A DNA stretch of 45,370 nucleotides from an uncultured bacterium (GTDB taxonomy: Bacteria > Patescibacteriota > Minisyncoccia > Phycocordibacterales > JAACPR01): contig CALLZK010000021.1 of assembly GCA_937858275.1 (NCBI GenBank), forward strand, positions 1 to 45,370. Direction: 5' to 3'. Under the pieces are notes generated by a model. That model was given only the letters and a program-made list of their open reading frames with translations, did no database searches and had not been told where the DNA came from. Positions 5,651 through 37,450 of this stretch are shown here, in pieces. Position numbers and translations under genes: made by a program. How positions within the stretch are numbered: the stretch's first letter is position 1; every line of letters starts with the position of its first letter.

Positions 5651-7798
5651 TTAAATTTTTCCAGATTTTATATTTTCGGCCACATTAGATGGAACTATTT
5701 CGTAATGATCTGGTTCTATTGTCGCAGAAGCACGACCTTGTGTCATCGAGCGAATAATAGTTGTATACCCGAACAATTCTGAAAGTGGAACTTTTGCATG
5801 AATTGTTGTCATACCATTACCGCGATCTTCCATACCTTCCACCTGACCTCTTTTTGAGCTCAAATTTCCAGTCACATCACCTGTAAATTGTTCTGGTGTT
5901 ATAACTTCAACTTTCATAATAGGTTCTAGCAAAACAGGTTTTGCTTTTTGAGCGGCTTCCTTGAAGGCCATTGAGGATGCTAATTTGAAAGCAATTTCTG
6001 AAGAGTCCACATCGTGATATGAACCATCATATAATTCCACAGAAACATCTGTCATTTTATATCCAGCAACAATTCCTCTATCCATTGCCTCTTTGAAACC
6101 TTTTTCACAAGGTGAAATAAATTCTTGAGGAATAGCACCACCCTTTATTGAATTAACAAATTCAAATCCGGCATCTCGTTTAATATTTTTTGGTAAATCT
6201 TCTAATTTTACATCTTTATCCAAAGGCTTAACTCTGATTTTGACATGACCATATTGACCTTTACCTCCAGATTGTTTTATATATTTGTGTTCAGCTTCAG
6301 CTTGACCAATAATTGTTTCTCTATATGCCACTTGTGGTTTTCCAACATCTGCACCAACATTAAATTCTCTCTTCATACGATCAACAATAATCTCTAAGTG
6401 CAATTCTCCCATACCAGAAATAACAGTTTCCCCAGTTTCTGAATCACTATTTACTCTAAAAGTTGGATCTTCATCAGAAAGTCTTTTTAGTGCCATACCC
6501 ATCCTTTCTTGATCAGCTTTTGTTTTTGGTTCTATTTTCATAGAAATAACCGGTTCTGCAAATTGAATTCTATGTAATTCAATAGGATTTGACTCATCAC
6601 ATAAAGTATCAGAAGTTTTTGTGGATTTCAAACCAACAGCTGCAGCAATTTCTCCCGCATAAACAGTTTGAACTTCTTCTCTTTCATTTGCATGCATTCT
6701 CAAAATTCTTCCCAATCTTTCTTTGTCTCCGGTTGTGGAATTATAAACATAAGAACCAGCAGAAATTGTTCCAGAATAAACTCTAAAATAAGTTAATTGA
6801 CCAACATATGGATCTGTTTGTAATTTGAATGCTAAAGCAGAAAAAGATTCTGTATCAGAAGCAATTCTTTCTATTTCTTCTCCTGTTTTTGGATCAAGAC
6901 CTTTTATTGGAGGTATGTCTGTTGGTGCTGGTAAATAATCAACAACAGCATCAAGAACCAGTTGAACTCCGGTATTTTTAAGAGCTGAACCTGTAAATAC
7001 TGGAACTATTTTATTTGCGATAACACCTTTTCTCAAAACAGATTTTAATTCTTCTACAGTTATTTCTTTTCCTTCCAAAAACTTTTCAGTTAATGAATCG
7101 TCTAATTCTGATATACGACTAACTAGTTCTGCATGATATTTTTCTGCTTCTTCTTTTAGTTCTGCTGGTATTTCTTGTTCTATTACAGTATTTCCCATTT
7201 CCCCTTCAAAAGTGAATGCTTTCATTTTTATCAAATCAACAACCCCTTTTAACTCAGATTCTTTTCCCCAAGGGATTTGTGCTCTAACAGCATTTTTTGT
7301 TAGACGATTCAAAATAGATTGGTAGGATCTTTCAAAACTAGCACCGGTTCTATCTAATTTGTTGATAAAACAAATTCTTGGAACTTGATACTTTTCTGCT
7401 TGTCTCCAAACTGTTTCTGATTGCGGTTCAACACCGGCGACACCATCAAAAACAACTACTCCACCGTCCAAAACTTTTAATGATCTCTCCACTTCAGCTG
7501 TAAAATCAACGTGACCGGGTGTATCAATAATATTAAAACGAACTTTTTTTGAAGTATCATCTTTGTTCATGTATGTTGGATTCCAAAAACAAGTTGTAGC
7601 AGCAGCAGTAATTGTAATACCCCTCTCCCTTTCTTGCTCCATCCAATCCATCACAGCTTGACCTTCGTGAACTTCACCTATTTTGTGAGAAACACCGGTA
7701 TAAAACAAAATTCTTTCTGAAGTTGTTGTTTTTCCTGCATCAATGTGAGCAATAATTCCAAAGTTTCTTACTCTTTCTAATGGATAATCTCGTTGCAT
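5651..7798 (-). CDS. fusA: Elongation factor G
   Basis: [41 protein letters not shown] and GMGELHLEI; 715 aa. Confidence 0.99.
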
Positions 7799-11230: not shown

Positions 11231-13654
11231 TTAAATTTGTGTTTTGTTTTTATATTTTTCTGTAACTATATACCAAGAAATATTATCTTTTTCACCTTTT
11301 TTTGGAAACTTAAAATATCGAGTAACAATATTTCCATAAGATAACATTTTTTGAAAATCAAAATCGTTCTGTGTTTGAGCGGAATAAATTCTTATTCCAT
11401 TTTCATATTCATAAAAATCATTTTCTGATTTATTGTTTGATTTATCTACGGAATCACCTGAACCTGCTTCTAATTTTGATCGTAAAAATCTTTCAACAAT
11501 TTTTTCTTGTGACCAATCACCTTCTGATTCTTTTTTTGTGACAAAGTCAAAATTCGTATCATCTCTTTCAATATTCAAAACTTCTATTTCAGCGACCGGT
11601 TTCCATTCTGTTGCAACAAAACCTCTTTCAATATAATTTGCACTAATTCCGACATGTGGATTACATTCGGCGATAATTTTTTTATCTTTCGCCATCAAAT
11701 CCAAGTCGCTCAACATCATAGCTTCGCCCAATCCAGATCCGTGGAATTGTCTATCAACATTAAAAGAAGCAAAATGAATTGTTTTTTCATTAACAGTGTC
11801 TATTCTATAAAATCCGGTTATATCGTCTTTGTATCGCAAAATTGTAAATTCTGAATCTGCATATTCCAGCGATTTTTCGAATGAATCAAGTAATATTTTG
11901 GTCAATTCTGGATATTTATCGTAATTTTCTTTATACATTTGACGCATTGTGTCGATGTCTTGTGGAGAGATTTTTTCTGGATTTATATGTCCGGTTAATT
12001 CAAAATTTTTAACATCGGAAACATTAATACTCTCACCTTTTGATTTAATATTTTTCAATGCTGATGAAAGCAAAATCATGTCTGCTTTGATCCTCTGCAA
12101 ATCTGCCAAAACTTCATCAAGTGATAATTCCAAACCATTTTCTTTTGCTTTTTTATGAGCATCAATAAAAGTTATCAAAATATCTTTGGCTTGTGACATA
12201 ACCCAAGATCTAATACTTTCTAATTCAACCTTATCAGTAATTTGATTATTTAATTCGGCATTGATGAAATTTTCTATATTATATGACTGATCGACAATAT
12301 CTGAATACTTTTTAAACAAAACTTTTGCAGAATCTGGATAATTTTTAGCAAAATCAAAAATTACATCTCCATCTATATCAAAAAAATCAACAGACAAAAA
12401 ACATCTAACACCCGTTGTTCCAAATTTTTTTACAAAATTCAATATTTCATCTTTATTTTTTTGGGAAAGTAAAACTCCAAAAAGAACCATTTGCTCTTCC
12501 CATTTAATGTCTCCCAAACTTAATCCCGCTTCCTTCATCATTGGTCTAAAAACATTCATCTGATATGACTGATCGTTTAATGCTACAAGCCTAGAAGCAT
12601 AATCAGAGTCACTTTCATTCTTCTTTCTTTGACAAAAAACATCTGGTTTATATGGAATAATTCTACCATCCATAAAATCCGCACCGAAATTTGCTTTCCT
12701 AACAACATCTGCTTGGCTAAATCCTTGTAAAAGAAGCGGTTGATATAGGTTTTCAATCTCCTCTTTTGTGGCCAAGCTAAAATATGCAATGAGCCTCAAA
12801 TCACCACCGTGTACTGATTCGAAAATACCAACTGTGTTTTTATCTAAGCTGGCCATTTTTTGATTTTCATTCCTCTCAATAGATGTTCCAACAAAATTAT
12901 TTCTACCAATATAATAGTTCGCATACCCATTTACTCCACTAAAAGAGATATATGGTTTATCACCCAAAGGTTTTACTTTATATATAAAATCTTCTTCTTT
13001 TATATTTGTACCTGGATCAAAATCTGTTTCATTAAAAACACCTGCATTAATTAATTTTTTTGCATATTTCCTTATAAAAGAATTTGGTTTATGAGAGAAT
13101 TTTTCACCCTTTATTGATGGTAAATATTGATAATTAGACTCCTTGAGATATCTTGCGGATAATTTTCTAATCGAACCATCTTTATCATTTACTAATAAAT
13201 TTCCGGTTTTCTGATCTCTATAGACCCCGAGATCATTGAGCATTTTGGCTAAAAATAATTCCACAATAGAAAAAGCAGACCCATCTTCTAATATTATATC
13301 CTCTGTGCTCCAACGGATAACACCAATAAGTTCTCTAAGCTCGTAGTGTCCAACAGACCAAATCCCAGATAATGCCTCCCTTTCATTTCTAGGAAAAGTT
13401 AACAAAGGGGCTTCTTTTCCATTAATACAGACCCTCTCTGAAGCCAAGTCGATTAAGAGATTAAGTAGACCCATCCCTTTATGATTCGTGGAGTTTCGAT
13501 TTTCTTTTTTTAGTGCTTCTATATTAAAATACAATTTTCCTTCTTTTTCTGATATAAGACCGATTTTTTTCGCCACAGAAAAAAAATCCTCGTTTTTTCT
13601 CTCAGAAAAGCCAACTGGTTTTTCATCACTCTCGATGGAAATATATTCTTTCAT
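11231..13654 (-). CDS. Large hypothetical protein with a C-terminal GNAT acetyltransferase-like domain
   Basis: 809-aa ORF (ATG at 13654, TTG at 13660). FASFNVDRQFHGSGLGEAMM matches GNAT motif A (V..x.x.G.G.G); followed by SANYIERGF. Confidence 0.7.
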   Translation of the reverse strand: MKEYISIESDEKPVGFSERKNEDFFSVAKKIGLISEKEGKLYFNIEALKKENRNSTNHKGMGLLNLLIDLASERVCINGKEAPLLTFPRNEREALSGIWSVGHYELRELIGVIRWSTEDIILEDGSAFSIVELFLAKMLNDLGVYRDQKTGNLLVNDKDGSIRKLSARYLKESNYQYLPSIKGEKFSHKPNSFIRKYAKKLINAGVFNETDFDPGTNIKEEDFIYKVKPLGDKPYISFSGVNGYANYYIGRNNFVGTSIERNENQKMASLDKNTVGIFESVHGGDLRLIAYFSLATKEEIENLYQPLLLQGFSQADVVRKANFGADFMDGRIIPYKPDVFCQRKKNESDSDYASRLVALNDQSYQMNVFRPMMKEAGLSLGDIKWEEQMVLFGVLLSQKNKDEILNFVKKFGTTGVRCFLSVDFFDIDGDVIFDFAKNYPDSAKVLFKKYSDIVDQSYNIENFINAELNNQITDKVELESIRSWVMSQAKDILITFIDAHKKAKENGLELSLDEVLADLQRIKADMILLSSALKNIKSKGESINVSDVKNFELTGHINPEKISPQDIDTMRQMYKENYDKYPELTKILLDSFEKSLEYADSEFTILRYKDDITGFYRIDTVNEKTIHFASFNVDRQFHGSGLGEAMMLSDLDLMAKDKKIIAECNPHVGISANYIERGFVATEWKPVAEIEVLNIERDDTNFDFVTKKESEGDWSQEKIVERFLRSKLEAGSGDSVDKSNNKSENDFYEYENGIRIYSAQTQNDFDFQKMLSYGNIVTRYFKFPKKGEKDNISWYIVTEKYKNKTQI

Positions 13655-13690
13655 ATTCAAAATAATAACATAAAAATTAAACAGCTCACA

Positions 13691-14338: not shown

Positions 14339-14624
14339 TTCTCTCCCCTAATCTGGTGTATTGTTTTGGCACACCTGTTTGAAGCCCACTATCTATCAAA
14401 CCACCACACCATGTGATGATTTGAATAAAAAGGAGAAATTTACGTATTCTCCAGTTGGCTTGTGCCACGGCCGACACCACATCGGCAACCACCACGCAAT
14501 TGAGTCTCAAGATAAGTATACTTATCCTTCCCTCATCTAGCTTTTGCGCAAAGCAACTTTGCATGTCTCACGACATTCACAAGCTGTCCCAGTTTCCGCT
14601 GGTTCGGTGATGCCTTTGGACGAC

Positions 14625-15158
14625 CTACTGGGCCGTCCGTCGACTCACAAGGTGTTTGTGCACCTCGGCCGCAACCGCGCTGTCATACAGCGGGTTATGG
14701 GTGGCACCGAAATCCGGCACCACGAGCCCCCACTTGTCGACATACTTGTCGACAGAGGTGGGATCCTCTCCGGCCTGCGCGAGTTCCCCCGCAACATCCA
14801 GAAGAGGATACGGACCGTCCCAGTCCCCGATGCACCCTTGCGAGTGCATGTCCCGAAGGAGATTACTCTCCACGGGAGTTCCCATGTGGACGACTATCTC
14901 CACACCTAACTTGTTCGCCAAGTAGAACTTGGCGAAATCGATAAGCAGAGACTCGTATGTCTCATGGGAGACGGGGAGACCACTGAGTGTGGGCAACACA
15001 TTCGTGCGAACCCACTCGTCAGTCACTGCTGTATCGGGCAAGCGACCGACAAACCGTCCAACTTCACGACCGGACTCGTCATAGACGAGTGCACCGATTG
15101 CGAAAGCACGGCCCCATAGACCATTGGTCTCGGCGTCAAAAGAAAAGATTTTTTTCAT
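14625..15158 (-). CDS. DEDDh (DnaQ-like) 3'-5' exonuclease, Rv2179c/RNase AS-like
   Basis: ExoI FDAETNG, VTDEWVRTNVLPTL and ExoIII THNPLYD. GC-rich (39/60 in 14761-14820). SD GAGG 10 nt upstream. Confidence 0.8.
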   Translation of the reverse strand: MKKIFSFDAETNGLWGRAFAIGALVYDESGREVGRFVGRLPDTAVTDEWVRTNVLPTLSGLPVSHETYESLLIDFAKFYLANKLGVEIVVHMGTPVESNLLRDMHSQGCIGDWDGPYPLLDVAGELAQAGEDPTSVDKYVDKWGLVVPDFGATHNPLYDSAVAAEVHKHLVSRRTAQ

Positions 15159-16029
15159 CTTTTCTTTTCCTCTGCATACTATTTTCCTAGTCTCCTAGGT
15201 TTTTATGCAGAGGTCCTTATGGTGCTTGACTGGGCACACCAACCCAGAGTGTTTTTGTTATAGGAAACACTCAACCATCTCAACGAACTAACAACCGAAG
15301 TGTTGTGGGCTCGATAGAAAGGAGATTTTCTTGAAATCCCCTACACCTTTTCAGGTGTGATTTAAACAGAATGAATTTATTTTTATATTACTTGTAAAAA
15401 TGCCGTCCAAATCACACCTGTCCATCTTTGTTTTGTCGAAAACCAGTTTTTAACCCGTCTCGTTTTACTACCACTAGCAAAAGATGAACTTGTGTGGATT
15501 TAATATTCAATTATCAACGAACTCCTCACCCTCTCCTCTCAATCTCATCGTGACTCTCTCCTCTTTTGGTCTGGCAAAGGGCACCTTTCCAGAAAAAATC
15601 ACACGACTTTGAGGTAGCAAGGATATTTCTAGACACAAAGAGTGGTTAATTCCTTATGTCGAGCCGATATCATTACTATTAGATACGGTTGATGTAATTT
15701 GCCTTATAGACATAGTTCCAATTCATGGCAGATGTTTGAGGCCTGGCACTTCACAGAACATTTACATCTTCAAACATAATAGGTTTAAATTTGGCTTCCA
15801 ATATTCTCTCCTCTTTGGGAAAAGTATTTCCGCAGAAAATTCACTCTCTCCTCTTTCTACACTTGCCGGCTGTAGGCACCGTCTAGATTAGGCCCGAATA
15901 TCTGTGGTCCAATCAAGATCAGACAGTGAACTTCAAATTTAACTCTATTACCTTTTAACGAACTTTTTGATGATTTGATTTTCAGACGATCGCCTCTTTA
16001 CGACCGGCATCTTTTCTTTTCATCATTCT
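15159..16029 (-). ncRNA. Candidate long structured 5' leader or ncRNA (about 870 nt, no ORF >=60 aa)
   Basis: No ORF in the track; many perfect stems (15169-15213, 15248-15271, 15352-15420, 15571-15592 and others); repeated AGAGGAGAG and AGTTCGTT motifs; lies between a consensus promoter and the exonuclease. Confidence 0.5.
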
Positions 16030-16035
16030 GAGTAT

Positions 16036-16064
16036 ATAATAGCAAAGTTTTGACAAAATGTCAA
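16036..16064 (-). promoter_or_regulatory. Near-consensus sigma70 promoter driving the island leftward
   Basis: Minus strand TTGACA (16064-16059), 17 nt, then TATTAT (16041-16036), with an extended -10 TG. Confidence 0.8.
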
Positions 16065-16217
16065 TACTATTGTGACAAATATATTAAAAATGTCAGAAAA
16101 ACCATAACTATCAACAAAAAAACCTTTATTTATATGTGGATAAGTGTCACAGAGTTGTGACAAGATGTGCTATATTTATTATATTGAATGTGTTTAGACA
16201 AAATTTATTAGACAAAT
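16050..16217. promoter_or_regulatory. Cluster of TGACA/TGTCA operator-like sites between the island promoter and the TrmB gene
   Basis: TTGACA-AAA-TGTCAA (16050-16064), TGTCAC-N6-GTGACA (16145-16162), TTAGACAAA twice, and TGTGGATAA at 16135-16143. Confidence 0.55.
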
Positions 16218-16243
16218 TTACCAAAAAAATAATCACAACAAAT

Positions 16244-17002
16244 ATGCAACAAGAAATATTAAATTCCGCAGGACTTACCACAGAACAATCAAAGATATAC
16301 ACCACCCTATTAGAAAACGGCTCAATGCAAGCCAGAAAAATAGTCCTAAATACAGGTATAAAACGGGGATTGGTCTATAAAGCACTTGATCAATTAATAG
16401 AAATGGGTCTAGTCACCAAACACGATTCTTTAGGAAAAATAAGTGTCTTCAATCCAAATCATCCAAATTTAATTTTAAAAATTATTGAAGAAAAAAAGAA
16501 AAACCTAGAAACAATAGAGGATTCCGTAAAATCAGTTGTTGGCCAAATGACTTCTAGTTTTAATCTTTTGACCGGAAAACCAAATGTTCGATTTTATGAA
16601 GGTGAAAAAGGTTTAAAGGAAGTGCTGGACGATTCTCTGTATTCAAAATCAGAAGTTTTATCATATGCAGACCTGGAATCAATTGAGAAATTTATTCCAG
16701 AAATTAATAAAAAACATGTAGCAGATAGAAAAAAACATGGGGTAATAAAAAAGGCAATGGTTCTAGATTCTGAATTTAATAGAAAAGTAATTCAAAATTA
16801 TGACAAAGAAGTGACTAATGTTCGTTTTATGGATGTATCTGAATCAAAACCATTTCAATCACTTATGAATATTTACGATAACAAAGTTTCGTATTTGACC
16901 TTGGACACCGACAGAATGATTGGTGTAATTATAGAAGATGAACATATTGCCGAAATGCAAAGATATATTTGGGAATTTAGTTGGAAAAATGCAAAAGATT
17001 AA
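16244..17002 (+). CDS. TrmB-family transcriptional regulator (N-terminal wHTH)
   Basis: Start MQQEILNSAGLTTEQSKIYTTLLENG..TGIKRGLVYKALDQLIEMGLV; PNVRFYEGEKG; C-terminal IYDNKVSYL..GVIIEDEHIA. Confidence 0.9.
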   Translation: MQQEILNSAGLTTEQSKIYTTLLENGSMQARKIVLNTGIKRGLVYKALDQLIEMGLVTKHDSLGKISVFNPNHPNLILKIIEEKKKNLETIEDSVKSVVGQMTSSFNLLTGKPNVRFYEGEKGLKEVLDDSLYSKSEVLSYADLESIEKFIPEINKKHVADRKKHGVIKKAMVLDSEFNRKVIQNYDKEVTNVRFMDVSESKPFQSLMNIYDNKVSYLTLDTDRMIGVIIEDEHIAEMQRYIWEFSWKNAKD

Positions 17003-21739: not shown

Positions 21740-22891
21740 TTAATTTAAGTTTTTATTAAAAATTAGAAAATTATTCACAACATTATTTTTTATTTGAATT
21801 TTTACACTCCTCAAATTTCCATCGCTATTTTTTCCCTGATTTAAATCAGAAATGTATTTTAAATTGCCTTTATTAATTTCTAATATTTTCATATTTTTCA
21901 AAATAACAGTGTGTTTCATTCTTTTTTTATAACTTAATAAATCTTTTTTATTCATCACCTTATTCCAAAAAATAGTAACCTCATTTTTAAAGTCAGAATC
22001 TTTTTTTGTCTCATGATAAAAAACAATATACCAAAATTTACCATATTTATTTAATGCTCTTAAAAAAGACATTTTATCATTTCCTGATATAGAGCAAGTT
22101 TTATTGGAATGAGCCTTAAGATCTCCTAAATAATTATTTGAAAAATTTAAATCAAAATCTAATTCTCCATATTTTTTATTTTTAACAAAAAGACAAACAT
22201 TCTTAAAATTTGGATTTTTATTTAAAAAATTTTCAAAACTAAACTCTAGATAAAAACCAGGCCACTCAGCTTGTCCGGCATTTTTATAATTAAAATTAAA
22301 CATCTCTGAATAACATTTTATACCATTCCAGTGACGGTCAATTGAATTTGAAAATTTATCGAATAATATTATTTCTTTTGGAAGAGAAATTTTTTTATCA
22401 GAGAAAAAATTATCGATAAATTCAATTATCCCCTCTTCTTTAATTGCAACTATTTTATTTCCACGAGAGTCAATTTTCTCAAAAAAGCCATGTTCCACAG
22501 CCTTTCTTAAATCAATGGTATGAACATGAGCAGATGAATTATTTAAATTATTTTTTAAATATTTTTTTGTATCAAAAAAAACAAAAATTATATTACTTTT
22601 ATATTTATAAACTCCAATCAAGAAAGTATTTTTCTTGATCAAAAAACTTTTCCACTCTTTCGGAATTTGAATTCTTTTTTTAAAAATATTATGAGGATTA
22701 CCTAGATAAGTAATTTGCTTAACACACAAAAAGAATTTTTTATTATTTTTACTAAAACAAATAAATGGATTTCTGTCATTTATAACATTAAAATGCTTAG
22801 ATAATATTTTTTTAATATCTGGTGCAGAAATTTTTTCATCATAATCAATTATAACATTGTTATCAGAATCTATTTGTTCAACTTTTTTCAT
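21740..22891 (-). CDS. Putative type II restriction endonuclease (PD-(D/E)xK-like)
   Basis: Overlaps the C5 methylase by ATGA; EWPGFYLEF..DFDL..DLKAH; extremely AT-rich. Confidence 0.65.
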   Translation of the reverse strand: MKKVEQIDSDNNVIIDYDEKISAPDIKKILSKHFNVINDRNPFICFSKNNKKFFLCVKQITYLGNPHNIFKKRIQIPKEWKSFLIKKNTFLIGVYKYKSNIIFVFFDTKKYLKNNLNNSSAHVHTIDLRKAVEHGFFEKIDSRGNKIVAIKEEGIIEFIDNFFSDKKISLPKEIILFDKFSNSIDRHWNGIKCYSEMFNFNYKNAGQAEWPGFYLEFSFENFLNKNPNFKNVCLFVKNKKYGELDFDLNFSNNYLGDLKAHSNKTCSISGNDKMSFLRALNKYGKFWYIVFYHETKKDSDFKNEVTIFWNKVMNKKDLLSYKKRMKHTVILKNMKILEINKGNLKYISDLNQGKNSDGNLRSVKIQIKNNVVNNFLIFNKNLN

Positions 22892-24066
22892 TTATTTTTA
22901 TTAAGCATAATACTTAAGACCCTTTTTACAACTTCAACATTTACAGCATTACCCAATTGTTTTAGGGCAATATTTTTATCTTTATGTAACTTAAATTTTT
23001 GATCAAAAGACTGTAATATTTTTACCTCTTCCGGATGAGCCCTCCTCAAAAACTTTCCTATTATTTGATTATGATTCATTGCTACTAAGGTAGAAAAATA
23101 ATCTGGCCTTTTTACTCTTACACCAGATGGTCTAAATTGTATTAAAGAATCATAAATATCTTTTATATCTTTTCCTGCCTGCCACTCAAACTTTTTATGT
23201 GTTTCTTTTACCCAATCTAAATTGTTGTATTTTTTAAACCATAAATCTATATTTTTTTTATTTCTATTATATAAATCAATATTTTTTAATATGAAATCCC
23301 TTTTCCATTTTGGGGTATTTTTTGGAATGTCATTTTCACTGATTTTGAAATAATTACTCCAAACAGGAAATCCTATAACTTTTATGTCTATAATCTTATA
23401 AAAATCATTCCACATTTCAATAACACCTTTTTCATAAGTAGATATTTCAAGTAACTTTATATTGTATTTATTATTTAAAATAGAATAAGAACTTAATTTT
23501 CCTTTATTTTTTTCAGACAAAAGAGTATCGAACTTATTTTCATAATTGTCAAAATCTTTCTTGACACCCGGTATATATATTCTTTTTCTTAAAACCGGCA
23601 AACCGAACTGATTAGGGCTCAAGATAAGTGGTTTTTGTGGAATTGAATATCCTATTTTTTTTAATGTTTCAGTTATAATTTTATAAGTATTTCCATTATC
23701 GTGAGTGACTAAATTTGAAACATTTTCAAGTAAAAAGTATTTTGGTTGATGGTGTTTTAAAATTCTAACAATGTCAAAAAATAAATTTCCTCTTATGTCA
23801 TTAAACCCTTTTCTAAAACCGCCCTTTGAAAATGGCTGGCAAGGAAAACCAGCAAAGAGAATGTCGTGAGAAGGTATATTATTTTCACCTATCGTAGTTA
23901 TATCTCCGCATGGAATCATTTTGTAATTTTCAAAATATACACTCTGACAATCTACATCCATTTCTGAAGCAAAAACGCATTCACCGCCAAAATCTTTCAT
24001 TGCTTGATGAAATCCTCCGATACCAGCGAATAGATCTATAAATTTTATATTATTTTTTCTATACAT
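22888..24066 (-). CDS. DNA (cytosine-5)-methyltransferase of a type II RM system
   Basis: FIDLFAGIGGF, AGFPCQPFS, LLENV, RKRIYI and KQLGNAV; ATG at 24066 (TTG at 24072). Confidence 0.97.
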   Translation of the reverse strand: MYRKNNIKFIDLFAGIGGFHQAMKDFGGECVFASEMDVDCQSVYFENYKMIPCGDITTIGENNIPSHDILFAGFPCQPFSKGGFRKGFNDIRGNLFFDIVRILKHHQPKYFLLENVSNLVTHDNGNTYKIITETLKKIGYSIPQKPLILSPNQFGLPVLRKRIYIPGVKKDFDNYENKFDTLLSEKNKGKLSSYSILNNKYNIKLLEISTYEKGVIEMWNDFYKIIDIKVIGFPVWSNYFKISENDIPKNTPKWKRDFILKNIDLYNRNKKNIDLWFKKYNNLDWVKETHKKFEWQAGKDIKDIYDSLIQFRPSGVRVKRPDYFSTLVAMNHNQIIGKFLRRAHPEEVKILQSFDQKFKLHKDKNIALKQLGNAVNVEVVKRVLSIMLNKNK

Positions 24067-24156
24067 AAACAATCTAATTTAACACCGAAGTATAGTATAG
24101 CAAATTAAAATAAAATAATAATAAAGAAAATTTAAAATAAACCCAATATATCCAAA

Positions 24157-29961: not shown

Positions 29962-30576
29962 TTATAAATTATCTTTCAAATTTCTAATTGAAACTTGTGT
30001 TGTTATTTCAATTGGTCCGGGTGGCTGATTTGGATCTGAATCTATAACCAAAACAACTTTAACTAATCTAACTTCTGAAGGATTAACTGGTTGAGAAATT
30101 GATTGTGAATTCTGGCCATCATAATTTGAATCAAAATAATAAAAAATATCTTGAGGAATAATATCTCTAATAACTTTTGTAATTTGTTCTTGTGATAAAT
30201 TATAGCCCAAAGGATTTCCAGACGGCTTTAATACACCCCTTTTAAAATCTGTACCATCCAAAAAATATCGCATCCTTTCTTTTAATCCATCATTATCTAT
30301 ATCAGAATAAAATATAAATTCTGTAGCAGATGCTTTTTCGATGGGATATGAACCAAGACTTGAAGGTGTTGCACTTCTAACTTCATTTACAAAAGGTTTA
30401 ATAAGTTTTTTTGCTTCTGACTGATTTTGTAATCCGGTTTGAATAAATCTAGTTAAAGAAAAAACATCAGATTGAAAACCCGCAACAGCAACAATAATCA
30501 AAGAAAAAACAAAAACTGACACTATTGTTTCTATCAAAGTAAATCCTTTTTTTGTTTTTTTAAAATCTAAAATCAT
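29962..30576 (-). CDS. Prepilin-type minor pilin (PilW/PulJ-like)
   Basis: KKGFTLIETIV class III signal; ATG 30576 overlaps the upstream TGA (ATGA). Confidence 0.85.
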   Translation of the reverse strand: MILDFKKTKKGFTLIETIVSVFVFSLIIVAVAGFQSDVFSLTRFIQTGLQNQSEAKKLIKPFVNEVRSATPSSLGSYPIEKASATEFIFYSDIDNDGLKERMRYFLDGTDFKRGVLKPSGNPLGYNLSQEQITKVIRDIIPQDIFYYFDSNYDGQNSQSISQPVNPSEVRLVKVVLVIDSDPNQPPGPIEITTQVSIRNLKDNL

Positions 30577-32366
30577 GGCGATAAAATTACTTGATATTCT
30601 GACCACGGAGAATTTATCGGAATTTGAATTTGAAAATCCTGATAAATTGAATGACTGACATTTAAATTATAATTTCCATTACTTAAACCAGAAAAAAAGA
30701 CTTGTCCTGGTGGCAAAAAATTCTCGGAAAATGTAATTGAAATATTTGAAAGAATTGGTGTAACAGAATTATCGTCTGTCTCCATGTAGATTTTATACTT
30801 AAAATATCTATCACCAAAATGAGATGCCGAAATTGGTTGTCCACTGGTAGTATAAAAAGTTTCAGATGTTCCGTCCGGACCCAAAAAATTCCATGTGGTT
30901 GTGGCAGTAATTTCTTGATTTGTAGCAAATTGAATTTTTAGACTTTCATCCCCAGACAAAACCGGCTGATCTGCCGGATCCCAAAAAATATTACTAAAAT
31001 TAGTACTTGTTCCCGTATCAAAAATTGCAGATTCTAAAAAGCCAGATGATTGATAGTTCCCGGCAAATTGTGATAGTGATATTTGTCCTTGTGGATTATT
31101 TGTATCAATATCACTACTAGAAAAATAACCTGAATTATTTGAACTAAAATATTCCTGACCTTGTCCAAATGACCAATCTGTTTGATTTAAAAAACCTCTT
31201 TCAGTTATCAATTCTTTAAATCCCCCTGGACCATCAATTGAAACATTTGCTCCAGAGACCGGAAGATTGGTTTGACCATCAATCACCTTTATCAAAAGTC
31301 CATTTTGATTTTTTGATTCTAAAATCAAATCAATTACATAGCTAGAATTTGGGTTAATTTGTATAGGCAAAAAAGGATTTGAGCCAGCAAAATGCCAATT
31401 TGTATCTAATATTTCTATATAATAATTATCCCACTCAAGACCGACAATTTCCAAAAAACCGTTAGAATTGGTTGTTTTGTTAAGATTATATTTATAAACA
31501 TTTTCACCGATAGTTTTTGAACCTCGAATATTAAATTCAATATTTGGAATTCTTTCTCCTGTTTTTGTTCTGGTGTAAATATCTAAATTACTTAATCTGT
31601 CTATTGAAAAACTTATTTGTGTAACTTGTCCAACTGCCACAGTAGAATGAGGTTTGTGTGGACTTGGATTTGAAATGTCGCCTATCGCATAAGTTTTATC
31701 ATTTGAAAAATTTGAACCATTAGACACACTAATTTCATAAGCAGAAACTCCGGGCGGAGCATCAACAAGTTGAAACATTCCAAAATTATTAGTTGTTTCA
31801 TTTATGGAAATAGTAGATGTGCCCTGGGTATTTAAAATAGAAACATTTGCCCCAGAAAGAGGTTGTCCGTTAGCATCAAAAACCTGAACAAACAAAGCCC
31901 CGTTGTTGCTGTTGGTTTCAAGTCCTAGTGGAGCGATTTTTGTATAAAAATCCATTTTTTCTTTAAATACACAATTTTGACACCAGATAGTTATTTGAAC
32001 CATTTTATAATCTGCAGGAGATAAATCATTTGGGCTTCCACCAATTGTTCCATCAAACGGATCATCAATATTTCTAATACTTGTTAAAACTGAAAAATTT
32101 ATTCCAGCCCTTTCAACTAACTGCTCTCTTTGTATTTTTCCATTTGGAATTCCATCTATTATTCCAACATCAGAATATGGTAAATTACGAATTATTTCAA
32201 TTTGCTCATTAGCCAAATTTACTGCCGTATTTTTTATTCTCAAAACCTTTACAGCTTCAATTATTTTTAAAAAACCACTATATGCAGGTATTGCAACTAA
32301 TACAAAAATAGTTACACCAATAAGTGTTTCAAACAAAGTAAAACCTTTTTGTTTTAAAAAAATCAT
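30573..32366 (-). CDS. Large prepilin-type protein (PilV-like) with beta-sandwich (carboxypeptidase-regulatory-like) domains
   Basis: QKGFTLFETLIG; VQVFDANGQPLSGANVSI and KVIDGQTNLPVSGANVSI. Confidence 0.85.
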   Translation of the reverse strand: MIFLKQKGFTLFETLIGVTIFVLVAIPAYSGFLKIIEAVKVLRIKNTAVNLANEQIEIIRNLPYSDVGIIDGIPNGKIQREQLVERAGINFSVLTSIRNIDDPFDGTIGGSPNDLSPADYKMVQITIWCQNCVFKEKMDFYTKIAPLGLETNSNNGALFVQVFDANGQPLSGANVSILNTQGTSTISINETTNNFGMFQLVDAPPGVSAYEISVSNGSNFSNDKTYAIGDISNPSPHKPHSTVAVGQVTQISFSIDRLSNLDIYTRTKTGERIPNIEFNIRGSKTIGENVYKYNLNKTTNSNGFLEIVGLEWDNYYIEILDTNWHFAGSNPFLPIQINPNSSYVIDLILESKNQNGLLIKVIDGQTNLPVSGANVSIDGPGGFKELITERGFLNQTDWSFGQGQEYFSSNNSGYFSSSDIDTNNPQGQISLSQFAGNYQSSGFLESAIFDTGTSTNFSNIFWDPADQPVLSGDESLKIQFATNQEITATTTWNFLGPDGTSETFYTTSGQPISASHFGDRYFKYKIYMETDDNSVTPILSNISITFSENFLPPGQVFFSGLSNGNYNLNVSHSIYQDFQIQIPINSPWSEYQVILSP

Positions 32367-32374
32367 TACAATTA

Positions 32375-33007
32375 CTATTTTAACTCTTTTTTTAAAATTT
32401 CGAAATCTTTTTTTAGATCTGGCAATGTGTTTCTGTTATAAATAGCTACAGCCGGATGATACAAAGGAATTATTTTAAGTTGAATATTTTCCCCAAAAAA
32501 ACTTGTGGTATTTTTTACTTCAAATTTTTGACCATGTATTTTGCTTATAGTATTAAGTTCTTTTTTCAAATCAAACTTTTCCATAACATACTTCATGGAA
32601 AATCTACCAAGTGTGGCAATAATTTCTGGTTTTATAATTTGTATTTGTTTATCCAAAAATGGTCCATAAAGTTTTATTTCTTCCGGCTTTGGATCACGAT
32701 TATTTGTTGGTCTATCTTTTATAATATTTGTTACATAAACATCTTCACGAGAAATGGAAATATGTTTTAATAATTCATCCAAAATTTTTCCCGATGCACC
32801 ACAAAAAGGTTGTCCAGTTTTTGCCTCATTTTTACCCGGAGCTTCACCAATAAACATAATTTTTGCATCATGATTACCACTACCAATTACCGGAAAAGAC
32901 TTGTTGGTAATTCTTTCAGCATAAAGTGGTGATTTTTTTAAATTAAAAATATCATCGCGAATTTTTTTCATTTCAGAAAGTTTTGATGAAAATTTTTGTT
33001 GTTTCAT
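32375..33007 (-). CDS. udg: Uracil-DNA glycosylase, family 4
   Basis: FIGEAPG, GQPFCGASG, VTNIIKDRP and LYHPAVAIY; ATG at 33007. Confidence 0.93.
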   Translation of the reverse strand: MKQQKFSSKLSEMKKIRDDIFNLKKSPLYAERITNKSFPVIGSGNHDAKIMFIGEAPGKNEAKTGQPFCGASGKILDELLKHISISREDVYVTNIIKDRPTNNRDPKPEEIKLYGPFLDKQIQIIKPEIIATLGRFSMKYVMEKFDLKKELNTISKIHGQKFEVKNTTSFFGENIQLKIIPLYHPAVAIYNRNTLPDLKKDFEILKKELK

Positions 33008-33061
33008 TATCAATAAATAATAACATAAAAAATATGCAATTTTATTTATTTTTTGAATAGT

Positions 33062-34282
33062 CTAAATTCCCTCAACCAAACTATACATAGGACCAATCAT
33101 AGATATCGCAAAAAAACCGACCACGACACCAACAAGAACCATCAGAACTGGTTCAATAATAGTAGAAATATTTTTTGTTTTTTGATCAACTTCACTTTCA
33201 TAAAAATCTGCAACTTCCAAAAGCATATTTCCCATTTCGCCAGTTTCTTCTCCAACAGCCATCATTTCACCAACAAAAGCCGGAAACAAATCATCGTTTT
33301 CAGAAAAAACTTTTGAAATTGGCAAACCCATTTGAATATTTTTTTCTGCCTTTTCAATTACTTTTTTATAATAGACATTTTGTATAACTTCTCTGGTTAT
33401 TTCAAGTGAGCGAGTAAAAGGAACTCCGGCCCCAAGCAAAGCAGATAATGTTCTGGTTGTTCTTGCAGAGTTTATTTCTTTTACTAAAGGAGATATTAAG
33501 GGGGATTTAATTAAAAATAAATGAAAATATTTTTTTCCATCTTTGGTTTTTAAAATAAATGAAAATAAAGTAAAAATTAAAAAAATTAAAATTATCACAA
33601 CAATCAAATTGTTTTGAAAAAAGTCACTTAATGCAATTATAAATTTTGTACTAGCCGGAAGTTCTATATTTAATTCAGCAAAAGTACTTGTCAGTGTTGG
33701 CACAACATAAATTAACATAAAAAAACCTATCAATATCATTGCCCCGATTATTACAGCTGGATAAATCATTGCACCTTTAACTTTTTTCTTTAACAAATAA
33801 TTTTTTTCCATTTGCTCTGCTGTAACTTTTAGAGATTGCACCAAATTTCCAGATTCTTCACCGGCTTTAATCATTGAAATCATCAAAGAAGTGAAAATTT
33901 TGGGAAAAGTTCCAAGAGCATCAGACAAACTTGACCCCTTTTTTACTTTGTCATTTATTATCTCCAAAATAGATTTTAATTTTTTATTTTTGGCTTGTCT
34001 TTGCATCACAGCCAATGCTCTAGTCAAAGGTAAACCGGCATTTATCATTGCTCCCAAGTTTCTATACATTATTATTTTGTCATGTTCAGAAATTCTACCA
34101 AAACTTTTTAGATATTCATTAACTGATTTTAAACCAAATTTTGAAACCGGCTCTGCAGATATTAGACTCAGTTTTTCAGATTTTAATTCTTTACTCAAGG
34201 AAAATTCATTTTCGGATTCTTTTGTTCCAATAATTAATTCTCCGTTTTGATTTATTGCTTTATAATTAAATTTAATGACCAT
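33062..34282 (-). CDS. pilC: Type IV pilus platform protein PilC (GspF family)
   Basis: AGEESGNL, KVKGAMIYP and AVGEETG; three TM segments. Confidence 0.95.
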   Translation of the reverse strand: MVIKFNYKAINQNGELIIGTKESENEFSLSKELKSEKLSLISAEPVSKFGLKSVNEYLKSFGRISEHDKIIMYRNLGAMINAGLPLTRALAVMQRQAKNKKLKSILEIINDKVKKGSSLSDALGTFPKIFTSLMISMIKAGEESGNLVQSLKVTAEQMEKNYLLKKKVKGAMIYPAVIIGAMILIGFFMLIYVVPTLTSTFAELNIELPASTKFIIALSDFFQNNLIVVIILIFLIFTLFSFILKTKDGKKYFHLFLIKSPLISPLVKEINSARTTRTLSALLGAGVPFTRSLEITREVIQNVYYKKVIEKAEKNIQMGLPISKVFSENDDLFPAFVGEMMAVGEETGEMGNMLLEVADFYESEVDQKTKNISTIIEPVLMVLVGVVVGFFAISMIGPMYSLVEGI

Positions 34283-34334
34283 TTTTTATTCTTCTAATTA
34301 TAACATCTAAAAAATAAATTTAGAAAAAGATATA

Positions 34335-36068
34335 CTATTCAGAAACAACTCTCAAAACCTCTTCGATTGTTGTTACACCAAGCACAGATTTGTAAATTCC
34401 GTCCTCAACCATAGTCAACATTCCTTCTGCTCTGGCTTGTTTTTCTATTTTTTCTGCTGATTCATTTTTCAAAATTAAATCTTTTACAGAATCAGAAACT
34501 CTCAAAATTTCTTGAATTCCAATCCTGCCAGAATAACCATCATCGTCACCTTCAACTATTGGTTTGTAAAAAGGAATTTCTGTCCAAGGAACATTTGGTT
34601 TGATGATTTTTTCATCAACCAAAACACGATGAATCAAATCCAGATTTGCTATTTTGTTCAATTGTTCTATTCCTATTTTTTTCAAAAAATATTTTTCTTT
34701 TTTATCAAGTTTTCTAACCAATCTTTGTGCAATTATGACTTTTAGAGTTGATACCAATAAAAAAGATTGTGATCCCATATCAATTAATCTTGGAATTGTA
34801 CCTGAAGCAGAATTTGTGTGCAGTGTAGATAAGACAAGATGACCCGTAAGCGATGCATTAATTGCCAAATTTGCAGTTTCACCATCTCGAATTTCTCCAA
34901 CCATTATTATGTCTGGGTCTTGTCTAACCAATGCTCTCAACCCTGAAGAGAATGTAAATCCAATATCTGGTTTTACTTGTGTTTGATTAACTCTTGGCAT
35001 TTGATATTCAATCGGATCCTCTATTGTTGAAATATTTACATCTGGAGTATTTAGCAAATCAATAAGTGTATATAAAGTCGTAGTTTTTCCAGAACCAGTC
35101 GGTCCAGTTGTCAAAATCATTCCAGTTGTTTGTTTTAGTGCCGAATGAACCATTTCCAAACCATCTCCATGAAAACCCAAAGCTTCAAGGGTAAATCCGC
35201 CACCACCCTCCCTCAAAATTCTCATTACTATTTTTTCTCCATGAGATATTGGAAGAATAGAAACCCTAAAAGAAACATTTTCACCCTCAAGTTCAGTTTT
35301 AAATCTTCCATCTTGTGGCAATCTTTTTTCGTCAATTTTTAGACTAGATAAAACTTTTATTCTAGCAACTATTGCTGGTCCTGAATGTTTTGGCAAAACC
35401 ATAGCATCATGTAACAAACCATCAACTCTATATCGAACGATAACATTTGCCTCATTTGGTTCTATGTGAATATCTGATGCTCCTTGTATAATTGCATGTT
35501 TTAATAAGGTATCTACGATTTTTATAACCGGCAAATCTGTTGCGATTTTTTGCAAGTCACCAACATTTTGTAATTTTGATTGATCAAGATTTGAGGCCTC
35601 TTTTTTGATAATATCTCCAAAATCTTCCTTTAAACTTTTTTGATATTGTAAAATTGCTTTTTTGAGACCTTCTGATGAAGTTAATCTGGGCAAGATTTTT
35701 AAGCCAGTTTTTTTTGTAATAAATTCTATCGCTGACAAATTATCAGTATCAAGCATTGCAACTTCTAACTTGTTACCCTCTTTGTTATAAGCTACTATAT
35801 TATTTTTTCTAGCAATCGGTTCTGGAATCAAATTTAAAACATCAAAAGAAATTTTTTGTGAACCAATATCTATAAAAGGTATTCCCAAAATATAAGCTTG
35901 TACTCTTTTTAATTCGTCCTCCGAAACAACACCTTCTCCAACCAAATAATCTCCGATAGTTTGTTTATGGTCTTTTGATATTTTTTTATAAGCATCTTCC
36001 CAAACATCTCTGGTCACAATACCAGAATCAATCATAAAATCTTTTAATTTATTTTCATCTATGAACAT
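34335..36068 (-). CDS. pilB: Type IV pilus assembly ATPase PilB (GspE family)
   Basis: ASDIHIEP, PQDGRF, GPTGSGKTTT, RQDPDIIMVGEIRD and TGHLVLSTLHTN. Confidence 0.96.
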   Translation of the reverse strand: MFIDENKLKDFMIDSGIVTRDVWEDAYKKISKDHKQTIGDYLVGEGVVSEDELKRVQAYILGIPFIDIGSQKISFDVLNLIPEPIARKNNIVAYNKEGNKLEVAMLDTDNLSAIEFITKKTGLKILPRLTSSEGLKKAILQYQKSLKEDFGDIIKKEASNLDQSKLQNVGDLQKIATDLPVIKIVDTLLKHAIIQGASDIHIEPNEANVIVRYRVDGLLHDAMVLPKHSGPAIVARIKVLSSLKIDEKRLPQDGRFKTELEGENVSFRVSILPISHGEKIVMRILREGGGGFTLEALGFHGDGLEMVHSALKQTTGMILTTGPTGSGKTTTLYTLIDLLNTPDVNISTIEDPIEYQMPRVNQTQVKPDIGFTFSSGLRALVRQDPDIIMVGEIRDGETANLAINASLTGHLVLSTLHTNSASGTIPRLIDMGSQSFLLVSTLKVIIAQRLVRKLDKKEKYFLKKIGIEQLNKIANLDLIHRVLVDEKIIKPNVPWTEIPFYKPIVEGDDDGYSGRIGIQEILRVSDSVKDLILKNESAEKIEKQARAEGMLTMVEDGIYKSVLGVTTIEEVLRVVSE

Positions 36069-36250: not shown

Positions 36251-37450
36251 ATGTTTGATTTAAAAGTAATAAATGCTGTGTTATCACAGATGGAAGAAGA
36301 AAGGGGTATTCCAAAAAATAAAATAATTGAAGCCATAGAAATGGCCTTGGGAACCGCTTACAAAAAAGAATACGGAAAAAAAGGACAAATAATAAAAGCA
36401 AAGTTCGATATAAATTCGGGCGATGTTGAATTTTGGCAATCAAAAATAGTAGTAGAAAAAGAAGGTGTCATAATGCCAGAAGAAGAATTTGATTTGTCTT
36501 CCACAAAAGATGGCGAGGAACCAAAACCAAGGTACAACCCAGAACATCATATACTTATAGAAGAAGCAAAACTTATAAAAAAAGATTCTCAGGTTGGAGA
36601 CGAATTAAATTTTCCCCTAGATAAAAAAAGTGATTTTGGCAGAATAGCTGCTCAAACAGCAAAACAAGTTATAACTCAAAAAATTCGTGAAGCAGAAAAA
36701 GTCTCGGTTGTTTCGGAATTTGGAGAAAAAGAAGGCGAAATAGTTTCAGGCACAATTGAAAGAGTTGAGAGAGGTACAATATTTTTGGATATGGGTAGAG
36801 CAATAGGAATGTTGTCATATGAAGAACAAATCCCTGGGGAAAGATTCAAACAAGGAGAAAGAGTTAGGGCATACCTGTTCAAGGTAGACGAAACAAGTCG
36901 TGGTGTTTTTCTAAAACTATCAAGATCACATCCAAAATTTCTAGAGGAATTGTTTAGATCTGAAGTTCCAGAAATGTCATCAGGAACAGTAGAAATAAAA
37001 GCTATTGCTAGAGAAGCTGGTGCCAGATCAAAAGTAGCAGTTTATTCAAATGACGAACATATTGATCCTGTTGGTTCTCTTGTTGGACAAAGAGGTGTTA
37101 GAGTAAGCACCATAATGTCAGAACTTGGTGGTGAAAAAATAGACATAATAGAGTGGTCAGAAAAGCCAGAAGAATTTATTAGCGAGGCACTATCACCAGC
37201 CAAAATATTAGATATAAAAATAAATTCAGAAGAAAAAATAGCACAAGTCAAAGTTGCTCCGGATCAACAATCACTTGCGATTGGAAAAGGTGGTCAAAAT
37301 GTTAGATTAGCAGCAAAATTGACTGGTTGGAAAATAGATGTGATCTCAGAGCAAAATCAAACAAATACTGACACACCAGAAACACAATCAACGGCACAAA
37401 AAGACGATTCTGCTGATGTAAAAACATCTGAAAATGATAAAATATCATAA
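36251..37450 (+). CDS. nusA: Transcription elongation factor NusA
   Basis: FGRIAAQTAKQVI, S1 domain, IAREAGARSKVAV, IDPVGSLVGQRG and AIGKGGQNVRLAAKLTGWKID. Confidence 0.99.
   Translation: MFDLKVINAVLSQMEEERGIPKNKIIEAIEMALGTAYKKEYGKKGQIIKAKFDINSGDVEFWQSKIVVEKEGVIMPEEEFDLSSTKDGEEPKPRYNPEHHILIEEAKLIKKDSQVGDELNFPLDKKSDFGRIAAQTAKQVITQKIREAEKVSVVSEFGEKEGEIVSGTIERVERGTIFLDMGRAIGMLSYEEQIPGERFKQGERVRAYLFKVDETSRGVFLKLSRSHPKFLEELFRSEVPEMSSGTVEIKAIAREAGARSKVAVYSNDEHIDPVGSLVGQRGVRVSTIMSELGGEKIDIIEWSEKPEEFISEALSPAKILDIKINSEEKIAQVKVAPDQQSLAIGKGGQNVRLAAKLTGWKIDVISEQNQTNTDTPETQSTAQKDDSADVKTSENDKIS

Follow-up and report, generated by a model that had tools for sequence, protein, structure and literature searches.

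In an uncultured bacterium of the Patescibacteriota, we analyzed a 45,370-nucleotide (nt) stretch of contig CALLZK010000021.1 (referred to below as the window) and found three boxA-like motifs on its minus strand, all inside an ~870-nt untranslated leader that precedes a gene for a DEDDh 3'-5' exonuclease. Each motif contains the 8-mer AGTTCGTT. Judging from sequence, we lean toward the view that motifs 1 and 2, together with the exonuclease-adjacent sites of related loci, are nut-like sites of the type found in ribosomal RNA (rRNA) operons (rrn), loading NusB-S10 and NusA onto RNA polymerase. The sequence, position, strand bias, and conservation of the motifs and the structure of the RNA were observed; factor binding and antitermination we infer. 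Because related genomes carry similar signals at similar places, this form of rRNA-style transcription control may have been borrowed for an uncatalogued RNA. An earlier note, made from the letters of the window, had proposed that the leader is transcribed under Nus antitermination and drives no rRNA, and we found no rRNA gene in the window.

BoxA-like motifs in the leader and its relatives

Read along the minus strand, motif 1 is AGUUCGUUAAAA (AGTTCGTTAAAA; 15953..15964), a promoter-proximal site ~65 nt past the inferred transcription start. Motif 2 is AGUUCGUUGAUAAUUGAAUA (AGTTCGTTGATAATTGAATA; 15504..15523), in which a boxA-like core is followed by an AAUU..AAUA tail, and it lies 86 nt past the core hairpin of the RNA, while motif 3 is AGUUCGUUGAGA (AGTTCGTTGAGA; 15278..15289), which overlaps the 3' strand of a helix in an element that we term junction module A. 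These are exactly the sequences and coordinates reported in the earlier note, which had also placed motif 1 just after a 5' hairpin, in boxB-boxA order. Such a hairpin is predicted at folded positions 6-63 (15968..16025, minus strand; inner stem CGGUCG/CGAUCG) in both the minimum free energy and the centroid folds, and hairpins also precede the first boxA-like site in the related loci L001/L044, L021, L023, and L046 (L-numbers are labels of related loci). Motif 2 is the strongest copy and the best nut-like site of the three, and motif 3 is the weakest, with a likeness that may be partly owed to the helix strand.

To ask how often such words occur by chance, we scanned both strands of the whole window. 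The 8-mer has four matches, compared to 0.97 expected from dinucleotide shuffles: three are clustered in 687 nt of a single strand, and the fourth is inside fusA. With the looser pattern G[TC]TCNTT[GAT]A there are eight matches in the window. Five are outside the leader and within genes; only the three in the leader are both intergenic and in the sense orientation of a transcription unit. A chance origin of the motifs is unlikely.

The same signal is found in related loci. Across 18 related leaders, the pattern G[TC]TC[TGA]TT[GAT]A has 19 sense-strand occurrences and a single antisense one, with 3.2 expected from the locus background. In 14 of 38 loci, the 250 nt that precede the exonuclease ATG contain the word GTTCTTT (1.85 expected; P ~1e-8), whereas the same-composition controls TTTCTTG and AAAGAAC give 2 hits and 1 hit, respectively. 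At least 11 leaders have a boxA-like word 10 to 75 nt past the promoter, often behind a hairpin, and a similar word lies 190 to 270 nt past the exonuclease stop codon in four loci. Positional counterparts of motif 1 read AAGTTCATTG in L001, L003, and L037, AAGTTCGTTT in L044, AAGTTCGTTA in L011, TGTTCATTACAAATTAATA in L010, and AGAACTTTAAAAAAC in L046. Several relatives carry canonical boxA forms (GTTCTTTAA.. in L003, L005, and L036 and GTTCTTTGAAAA in L010 and L021): GTTCTTTAAAAA (L003 and L005) and GTTCTTTAAGAA (L036) fit the published boxA consensus GYTCTTTAANA (PMC5725501), GTTCTTTGAAAA is likewise canonical, and L030 is off at the last position. In addition, a Legionella CRISPR boxA, GTTCTTTAAAA, which reduced polarity experimentally (PMC7862264), is identical to the exonuclease-adjacent sites in L003, L005, and L036.

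These distributions bear on a reading in which the words are DNA operators of the neighboring TrmB/Csa3-like regulator, or chance repeats. The regulator gene is always adjacent, and T-rich words arise easily in AT-rich genomes. However, the 19:1 strand bias, the presence of sites up to 1.5 kb into the transcribed region and just before open reading frames (ORFs), the lack of enrichment of control words, and the shuffled expectation of 0.97 copies per window all speak against this reading, which we regard as very improbable. A better operator fit is a separate palindromic repeat, GTTTTGACAAAAT, found at promoters in three copies. The GTTTTGACAAAAT-like repeats of the window (16047-16059, 16154-16166, and 16192-16204) lie in the divergent promoter region between regulator and leader and are the probable operators of the TrmB-like regulator.

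The closest likeness to rrn sites is seen just past the conserved core of the RNA, at and around motif 2. Sites 9 to 116 nt past the core match the family consensus, G-W-W-C-N-U-U-G-A-M-A-A-U-U-N-A-A-U-A, at 15 or more of 21 positions in 11 of 17 loci, with shuffles reaching 14 at their 99th percentile, and the best conserved positions are G3 (16/17), C6 (16/17), U8 (15/17), U9 (17/17), A13 (17/17), A14 (16/17), and U15 and U16 (14/17 each). The tail of motif 2, AAUUGAAUA, is conserved in the family and contains AUU and AUA features. Over ~19 nt, the post-core profile parallels E. coli G-C-U-C-U-U-U-A-A-C-A-A-U-U-U-A-U-C-A, beyond boxA and into the spacer. For reference, the E. coli rrn leader sequence TGCTCTTTAACAATTTATCAG... 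was found in every one of 5426 genomes, with a median of seven occurrences per genome, and GCUCUUUAACAAUUUAUCA lies 104 nt before 16S in the one place inspected. The earlier note had matched the 20-mer of motif 2 at 16 of 20 positions to TGTTCTTTGAAAACTGAATA, given there as a boxA context; the arithmetic is correct, and 18 bases of that string are a real published Mycoplasma nested-PCR detection primer, GTTCTTTGAAAACTGAAT (PMC3019172). Motif 2 matches this primer at 15 of 18 positions and the L010 site does so at 17 of 18. We take the position of the primer to be the 16S-23S spacer, at the spacer boxA.

Two further candidates in this comparison were rejected. A boxA position 6 that is concerted within each genome would fit the G, G, G of the window, but L001, L003, and L010 mix A, G, and U. 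At L007:2599-2618, AGAGTTTGATCCAGGCTGAT matches the universal 16S 5' end at 17 of 20 positions, 80 nt past a boxA-like TTGTTCTTTAT and 150 nt before GAACTTTGAAAA; this match is insignificant after counting the eight probes used, though the arrangement is rrn-like.

Candidate nut-like sites and competing explanations

Published work defines what a boxA site offers to Nus factors. NusB-S10 reads boxA nucleotides 1 to 8, and position 6, occupied by U in E. coli and by C in Aquifex, is contacted via the pyrimidine O2 (PMC3177189). The S1-KH-KH region of NusA binds the rrn spacer sequence ACAAUUUA, in which AUU is critical, and in M. tuberculosis AUA is critical for binding by the NusA KH domains (PMC2724277). 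Sites in rrn operons have a hairpin-then-boxA order and both leader and internal placement (PMC8632103). We compared the window copies with an 8- to 9-nt core, N-G-Y-U-C-Y-U-U-R (E. coli UGCUCUUUA, Aquifex GGCUCCUUG), and found that AGUUCGUU (A-G-U-U-C-G-U-U-R-A) agrees at seven of the eight recognized positions. The placement on the transcribed strand, with motif 1 ~65 nt past the start and motif 2 86 nt past the core, is rrn-like, and flanking elements are present for motifs 1 and 2 only, namely, the hairpin before motif 1 and the NusA-type spacer after motif 2. The RNA itself is long, untranslated, and structured, the type of transcript that Nus complexes serve, and the window encodes a NusA that has S1 and KH domains (36251-37450).

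On this basis, we propose the following sequence of events. The leader would be transcribed from a strong promoter that faces away from the regulator gene and would run on into the exonuclease gene. Its sites would offer a boxA core for NusB-S10 and, at motif 2, also an AAUU..AAUA spacer of the NusA-binding kind. Motif 1 would emerge behind its hairpin soon after initiation, so that Nus factors could be loaded onto RNA polymerase; the modified polymerase would then resist Rho or pausing over ~0.9 kb of ribosome-free RNA and, as in rRNA synthesis, might hold the 5' end and aid the folding of the ~450-nt structured core. At the 3' edge of the core, motif 2 would reload the complex, like the boxA of the 16S-23S spacer, and boxA-like sites at cassette junctions, which in many relatives lie directly before the exonuclease gene, could carry it into downstream genes or tune their translation. 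A broader version, possible but tentative, is that the whole unit is rRNA operon-like: a Nus-modified polymerase would make an ~450-nt RNA with nut-like sites on either side, this RNA would head a shuffling cassette operon next to the regulator gene, and the Nus complex would be both folding chaperone and antiterminator for a new ribonucleoprotein or defense-linked RNA.

Several results weigh against Nus loading at these sites. The window copies have a purine (G) at position 6, which across the family is U, G, or A, and positions 3 and 4 of the post-core sites vary (UU, AA, UA, or CC) and are looser than GCUC/GUUC, with some sites reading GAAC, GUAC, or ACCC at positions 2 to 5. BoxA is bound as an extended single strand, so accessible sites are expected; the predicted unpaired probability over 30 sites was 0.31 for the first five nt and 0.47 for the last four, compared to 0.41 for the background, although thermodynamic folds of a 900-nt RNA say little about cotranscriptional access. 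Among the window ORFs scanned, which come from a single contig, we saw no nusB, nusE, nusG, or rho. Universal rRNA probes found no rRNA in 58 Patescibacterial loci, and a search for rrn contigs via intron-encoded endonucleases (I-CreI query, four contigs) returned plastid or mitochondrial DNA only. No RNA sequencing runs containing the window locus or L043 were found. The window copies are boxA-like in sequence and are candidate members of the boxA family.

The remaining points against Nus loading come from the junction modules. Module A (15278..15340, minus strand) consists of a hairpin, GGGGAUUU..AAAUCUCC, followed by a two-part helix in which CGAGC (15313-15309) pairs with GUUCG (15288-15284) and ACAAC (15306-15302) pairs with GUUGU (15295-15291), and its outer helix co-changes among loci, from CGAGC/GUUCG in the window to UGAAC/GUUCA in L002 and UAAGC/GCUUA in L048. 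The module stands after the exonuclease gene in both L002 and L048, and L048 keeps the helix while the boxA-like sequence is gone. Module B (approximately 14395..14470, minus strand), between the exonuclease gene and a 141-amino-acid ORF, has the same architecture (GGAGAAU..AUUUCUCC, UCAAA/UUUGA, and AUCACA/UGUGGU); its fold is kept, and the boxA-like position reads GGUUUGAUAGAUAG, which is not boxA-like. In L003, in contrast, the boxA-like word stands after the helix and is not part of the helix strand.

These findings support a Nus-independent reading, in which the sites belong to a structured junction or leader module, GUUC is a helix strand, the A/U-rich tail is a processing signal or the site of another factor, and the likeness to boxA is convergent. 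Protein S1, the exonuclease, and an RNase such as RNase Y, whose gene is in the window, would be candidate factors. This reading accounts for the GUUCG/GUUCA/GCUUA covariation, for the fold without the sequence in module B, for the repetition of modules at cassette boundaries (L003, L046, and both sides of the window exonuclease gene), and for the unremarkable accessibility and the loose positions 3, 4, and 6. It does not account for the ~19-nt likeness to rrn nut sites, including NusA spacer features at the post-core site, for the exact canonical boxA in many relatives, or for the placement of the L003 site after rather than within the helix, and the position just past the promoter in at least 11 leaders suits a loading site, not a junction. 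We consider it doubtful, though a serious possibility.

Thus, the antitermination proposed in the earlier note holds up in part. What stands is a strand-specific, selected, RNA-level signal common to homologous leaders, with promoter-proximal and internal placement, canonical boxA forms in relatives, AUU/AUA features at motif 2, and NusA encoded in the window. The G at position 6, the covarying helix that contains the 5' half of motif 3, the module B fold that is kept without boxA-like sequence, and a predicted single-strandedness no better than background do not favor it.

It is also conceivable that the sites bind the Nus complex and mainly repress, as at suhB: NusB/E would block translation of the exonuclease (and other cassette) genes, polarity would follow, and a feedback loop would tie an rRNA/tRNA-trimming nuclease to ribosome synthesis. 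In favor of this reading, the site conserved most consistently across loci is found 43 to 190 nt ahead of the exonuclease start codon, the enzyme has a fold like that of RNase T, conserved hairpins already hold the ribosome-binding region of its gene, and SuhB-type repression and boxA upstream of translation-related genes are documented (PMC5725501; PMC12360218). However, the nearest window motif, motif 3, is 130 nt from the ATG, compared to 50 nt in the survey of PMC5725501, where longer distances are reported to be able to work. Repression would also leave unexplained motifs 1 and 2, which flank the core far from ORFs, and the boxA-like sites of leaders without a downstream exonuclease gene (L043, L044, and L046), and we judge it unlikely.

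The structured leader RNA

The leader starts, by inference from the promoter sequence, near 16029, downstream of a near-consensus sigma-70-type promoter (16036..16064, minus strand) that consists of TTGACA, a 17-nt spacer, and a TG-extended TATTAT (TGnTATTAT) and matches at 11 of 12 positions. Equivalent promoters lie 5' of related leaders. From the promoter to the exonuclease ORF, ~870 nt contain no conserved ORF. The earlier note had taken this long RNA to be functional, and both its fold and its covariation show that it is real and structured. A 901-nt stretch folds at z = -5.2 compared to shuffles, and nhmmer detected the central 55 to 545 nt of the leader in relatives; one pattern scan of metagenomes gave 11 true matches (8 distinct sequences) and 2 false ones.

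The most conserved piece of the RNA is the core hairpin (15611..15695, minus strand), which has a 9-nt loop, AYUAACCNC, and an internal loop, AUCGG / AGAAAU. RNAalifold identified 17 pairs in this hairpin, 10 of them compensatory. In the alignment of the core, 95% of cells are paired, compared to 38 to 50% with slid partners, and the covariation score is 0.54, compared to at most 0.16. A covariance model of the hairpin, R1, scores 90.5 bits in the window and finds the core in 16 other loci (L001, L002, L010, L011, L015, L027, L037, L043, L044, L046, L048-L051, L054, and L055). Seven of the 37 Patescibacterial exonuclease loci that we fetched are positive for R1, or 8 of 38 when the window is included. 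Searches of Rfam 15 at the gathering threshold and at E <= 10 returned no family match for the leader, with IMES-5 (E = 0.3, 20.8 bits against a threshold of 96) as the best match in 14900-16400, and the ~450-nt RNA had no counterpart in Rfam 15 or in the literature searched. The hairpin is the heart of an ~450-nt structured RNA family new to Rfam 15.

Upstream of the core, a 5' domain (15769..15958, minus strand) is closed by a 25-nt imperfect stem (15934-15958 with 15769-15793) and contains a conserved hairpin (..CCUAC-AGCC..AAGUG-GUAG..) and two purine tracts. Read by eye, its stems change as CUAC/GUAG, ACCG/CGGU, CCGAC/GUCGG, and CCAUG/CAUGG. Purine tract 1, AAAGAGGAGAGAGUGA (15842..15857, minus strand), and further tracts at ~15803-15817, 15553-15567, and 15528-15540 (minus strand) are Shine-Dalgarno-like and are followed by no conserved ORF. 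Two to four such tracts, (A)AGAGGAGAGAGU, are present per RNA in the family, mostly in or beside hairpin loops with co-changing stems; base pairing to the anti-Shine-Dalgarno end of 16S rRNA and protein binding are two possible roles. Small ORFs behind the tracts were considered and rejected: a 13-codon ATG ORF at ~15549 has no ATG in L001 and L002, and the indels of relatives are not multiples of three, so we treated the leader as noncoding. A resemblance of AAAUCUCCUUUCUAU and the GUAGGGGA before it to helix 45 and the anti-Shine-Dalgarno, which would mimic the 3' end of 16S, was also rejected as unsupported, since 8- to 9-mer matches are expected by chance (~0.1 to 0.6) and L048 alters the sequence yet keeps the hairpin.

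Downstream of the core, the 3' part of the leader folds into a long AU-rich hairpin (15352..15420, minus strand), and a two-level stem-loop (15169..15213, minus strand) adjoins the exonuclease gene. The stem-loop has an outer stem, CCUCUGCAU/AUGCAGAGG, and an inner stem with a GNRA loop, CCUAG-GAGA-CUAGG, which co-varies (CCAG/CUGG in L001 and CUCAG/CUGAG in L002), and it is the source of the weak IMES-5 match. Next to it, a perfect 12-bp hairpin (15138..15168, minus strand; AAAAGAAAAGAU / AUCUUUUCUUUU; arms 15157-15168 / 15138-15149) holds both the ATG of the exonuclease gene and its ribosome-binding region. The 5' arm of this hairpin, AAAAGAAAAGAU, recurs unchanged at 16009-16020, at the 5' end of the leader and 850 nt upstream; this second copy could compete for the 3' arm and free the exonuclease start site.

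A phage origin of the RNA was rejected, as the core pattern is absent from IMG/VR and five phage exonuclease homologues have no boxA leader. These homologues, on the IMG/VR viral contigs L067-L071, are at 46 to 63% identity and lie among tightly packed genes.

The cassette operon, known systems, and the host contig

The exonuclease encoded at 14625..15158 (minus strand) has 177 amino acids, and searches of Pfam, NCBIfam, and PDB sequences gave no match to its ORF. More than 650 homologues were found at 65 to 86% identity, the closest of them named Candidatus Paceibacterota, with invariant residues D8, E10, D103, H154, and D159 (D-x-E, D, and H-x4-D). The AlphaFold2 model has a predicted local distance difference test score of 93, and the best Foldseek match is RNase T (template modeling score of 0.70), followed by RNase AS, Pol III epsilon, and ExoX. 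We assigned it as a DEDDh enzyme with an RNase T-like fold because of the invariant motifs of the homologues and these structural matches. The gene is 57% GC in an ~29% GC genome, and the homologues (L001-L038) are at 0.5 to 0.6 GC in most hosts, largely regardless of background. Together with the GC-rich variable ORFs described below, this composition suggests that the genes are drawn from a shared mobile pool or are under an unusual constraint.

On the other side of the leader, a TrmB-family winged-helix regulator is encoded divergently (16136..17002, plus strand), and its helix-turn-helix also resembles Csa3/CasR. In at least 20 loci, the RNA always diverges from an adjacent, opposite-strand TrmB-family regulator gene. 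Zero to three variable GC-rich ORFs lie between the RNA and the exonuclease gene, and several RNA loci have no exonuclease gene downstream. Because the ORF content varies and the exonuclease gene is sometimes absent, we describe the unit as a variable cassette operon with a conserved head. Two copies of the junction module flank the exonuclease gene, and comparable repeated modules occur at the cassette boundaries of relatives, such as in L003 and as 291-nt repeats at L046:3186-3476 and 7304-7594, which suggests that cassettes are exchanged between conserved junctions.

Individual cassettes differ in content. At L002:1531-3705, a SAVED-2TM protein and a viperin-like radical-SAM enzyme, both defense-like, are encoded between the RNA and the exonuclease gene. 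A DEAH/Cas3-like helicase cassette follows the RNA at L046:3549-7281, with the 291-nt repeats on both sides. An 809-amino-acid protein with a C-terminal GNAT acetyltransferase domain and no other annotation, encoded in the window at 11231-13660 (minus strand), recurs near the cluster of regulator, RNA, and exonuclease, on either side, in at least 11 loci.

To our knowledge, boxA and Nus factors were long viewed as confined to rRNA and lambdoid phages, to which suhB, a few other genes, and CRISPR arrays are the only later additions. Compared to the nut-like sites of rrn operons (boxB-boxA-boxC, with an rrn antitermination complex of NusA/B/E/G, SuhB, and S4), the window sites are alike in their hairpin-then-boxA order, in having one site near the promoter and another after a large structured RNA, in a G-Y-U-C-N-U-U-R-A core with an AAUU/AUA spacer, and in the long, untranslated, structured transcript. 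In contrast, here no rRNA follows, the RNA is an uncatalogued one of ~450 nt, protein-coding cassettes come after it, and position 6 is a purine. The suhB-type sites (PMC5725501) resemble those described here in that boxA lies upstream of a gene of RNA or ribosome metabolism, is kept across species, and may serve feedback control. They differ in that our sites lie 43 to 190 nt from the start codon rather than at most 50 nt, usually with a hairpin between, that there are several per transcript, and that they occur in Patescibacteria and precede an RNase T-like exonuclease instead of a Nus factor.

At CRISPR arrays, boxA protects a long noncoding transcript from polarity, according to Stringer et al. 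2020 as related in PMC7862264. The shared GTTCTTTAAAA of L003, L005, and L036, the Csa3/CasR-like helix-turn-helix, and the defense-like genes of some operons recall these arrays, but the leader described here has no repeat-spacer array and instead forms a single ornate fold with covarying helices. A CRISPR or TIGR guide array was rejected, as the purine tracts are irregularly spaced (40, 250, and 25 nt) and lie within covarying hairpins (for the architecture of TIGR arrays, see PMC12045711). Like EAR, put, LoaP, and RfaH ops, the leader may carry an element that gives read-through of a long operon. Those systems act through specific RNA folds or through NusG paralogues and DNA ops sites, whereas the signal here is a short linear boxA-like word, and Rfam gave no match to EAR or the others.

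Set against rrn nut sites and the boxA of CRISPR arrays, these sites differ in three ways: they bracket an uncatalogued ~450-nt RNA, recur at the junctions of variable operon cassettes, and occur in Patescibacteria. The Candidate Phyla Radiation consists of reduced, uncultured bacteria in which transcription control is almost unexplored; if our reading is true, conserved use of boxA is added for this group, and scanning for promoter-proximal boxA would give a handle on further long noncoding RNAs in these genomes. A new RNA family with solid covariation is gained for characterization, and if the sites do not bind Nus factors, the locus still defines this family and a new structured junction module.

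The window takes in essentially all of a 45.3-kb contig from activated sludge, with ~29% GC overall and 41 to 49% GC at 13.9-16.0 kb. Only two tRNAs in it pass the Rfam gathering thresholds. A C-5 cytosine DNA methylase with an MTaX1 "methylase-associated" partner is encoded at 21740-24072 (minus strand). The other window genes, which include a type IV pilus/type II secretion system (29962-36068), RecJ, UDG, NusA, RNase Y, and ComEC, are ordinary Patescibacterial content.

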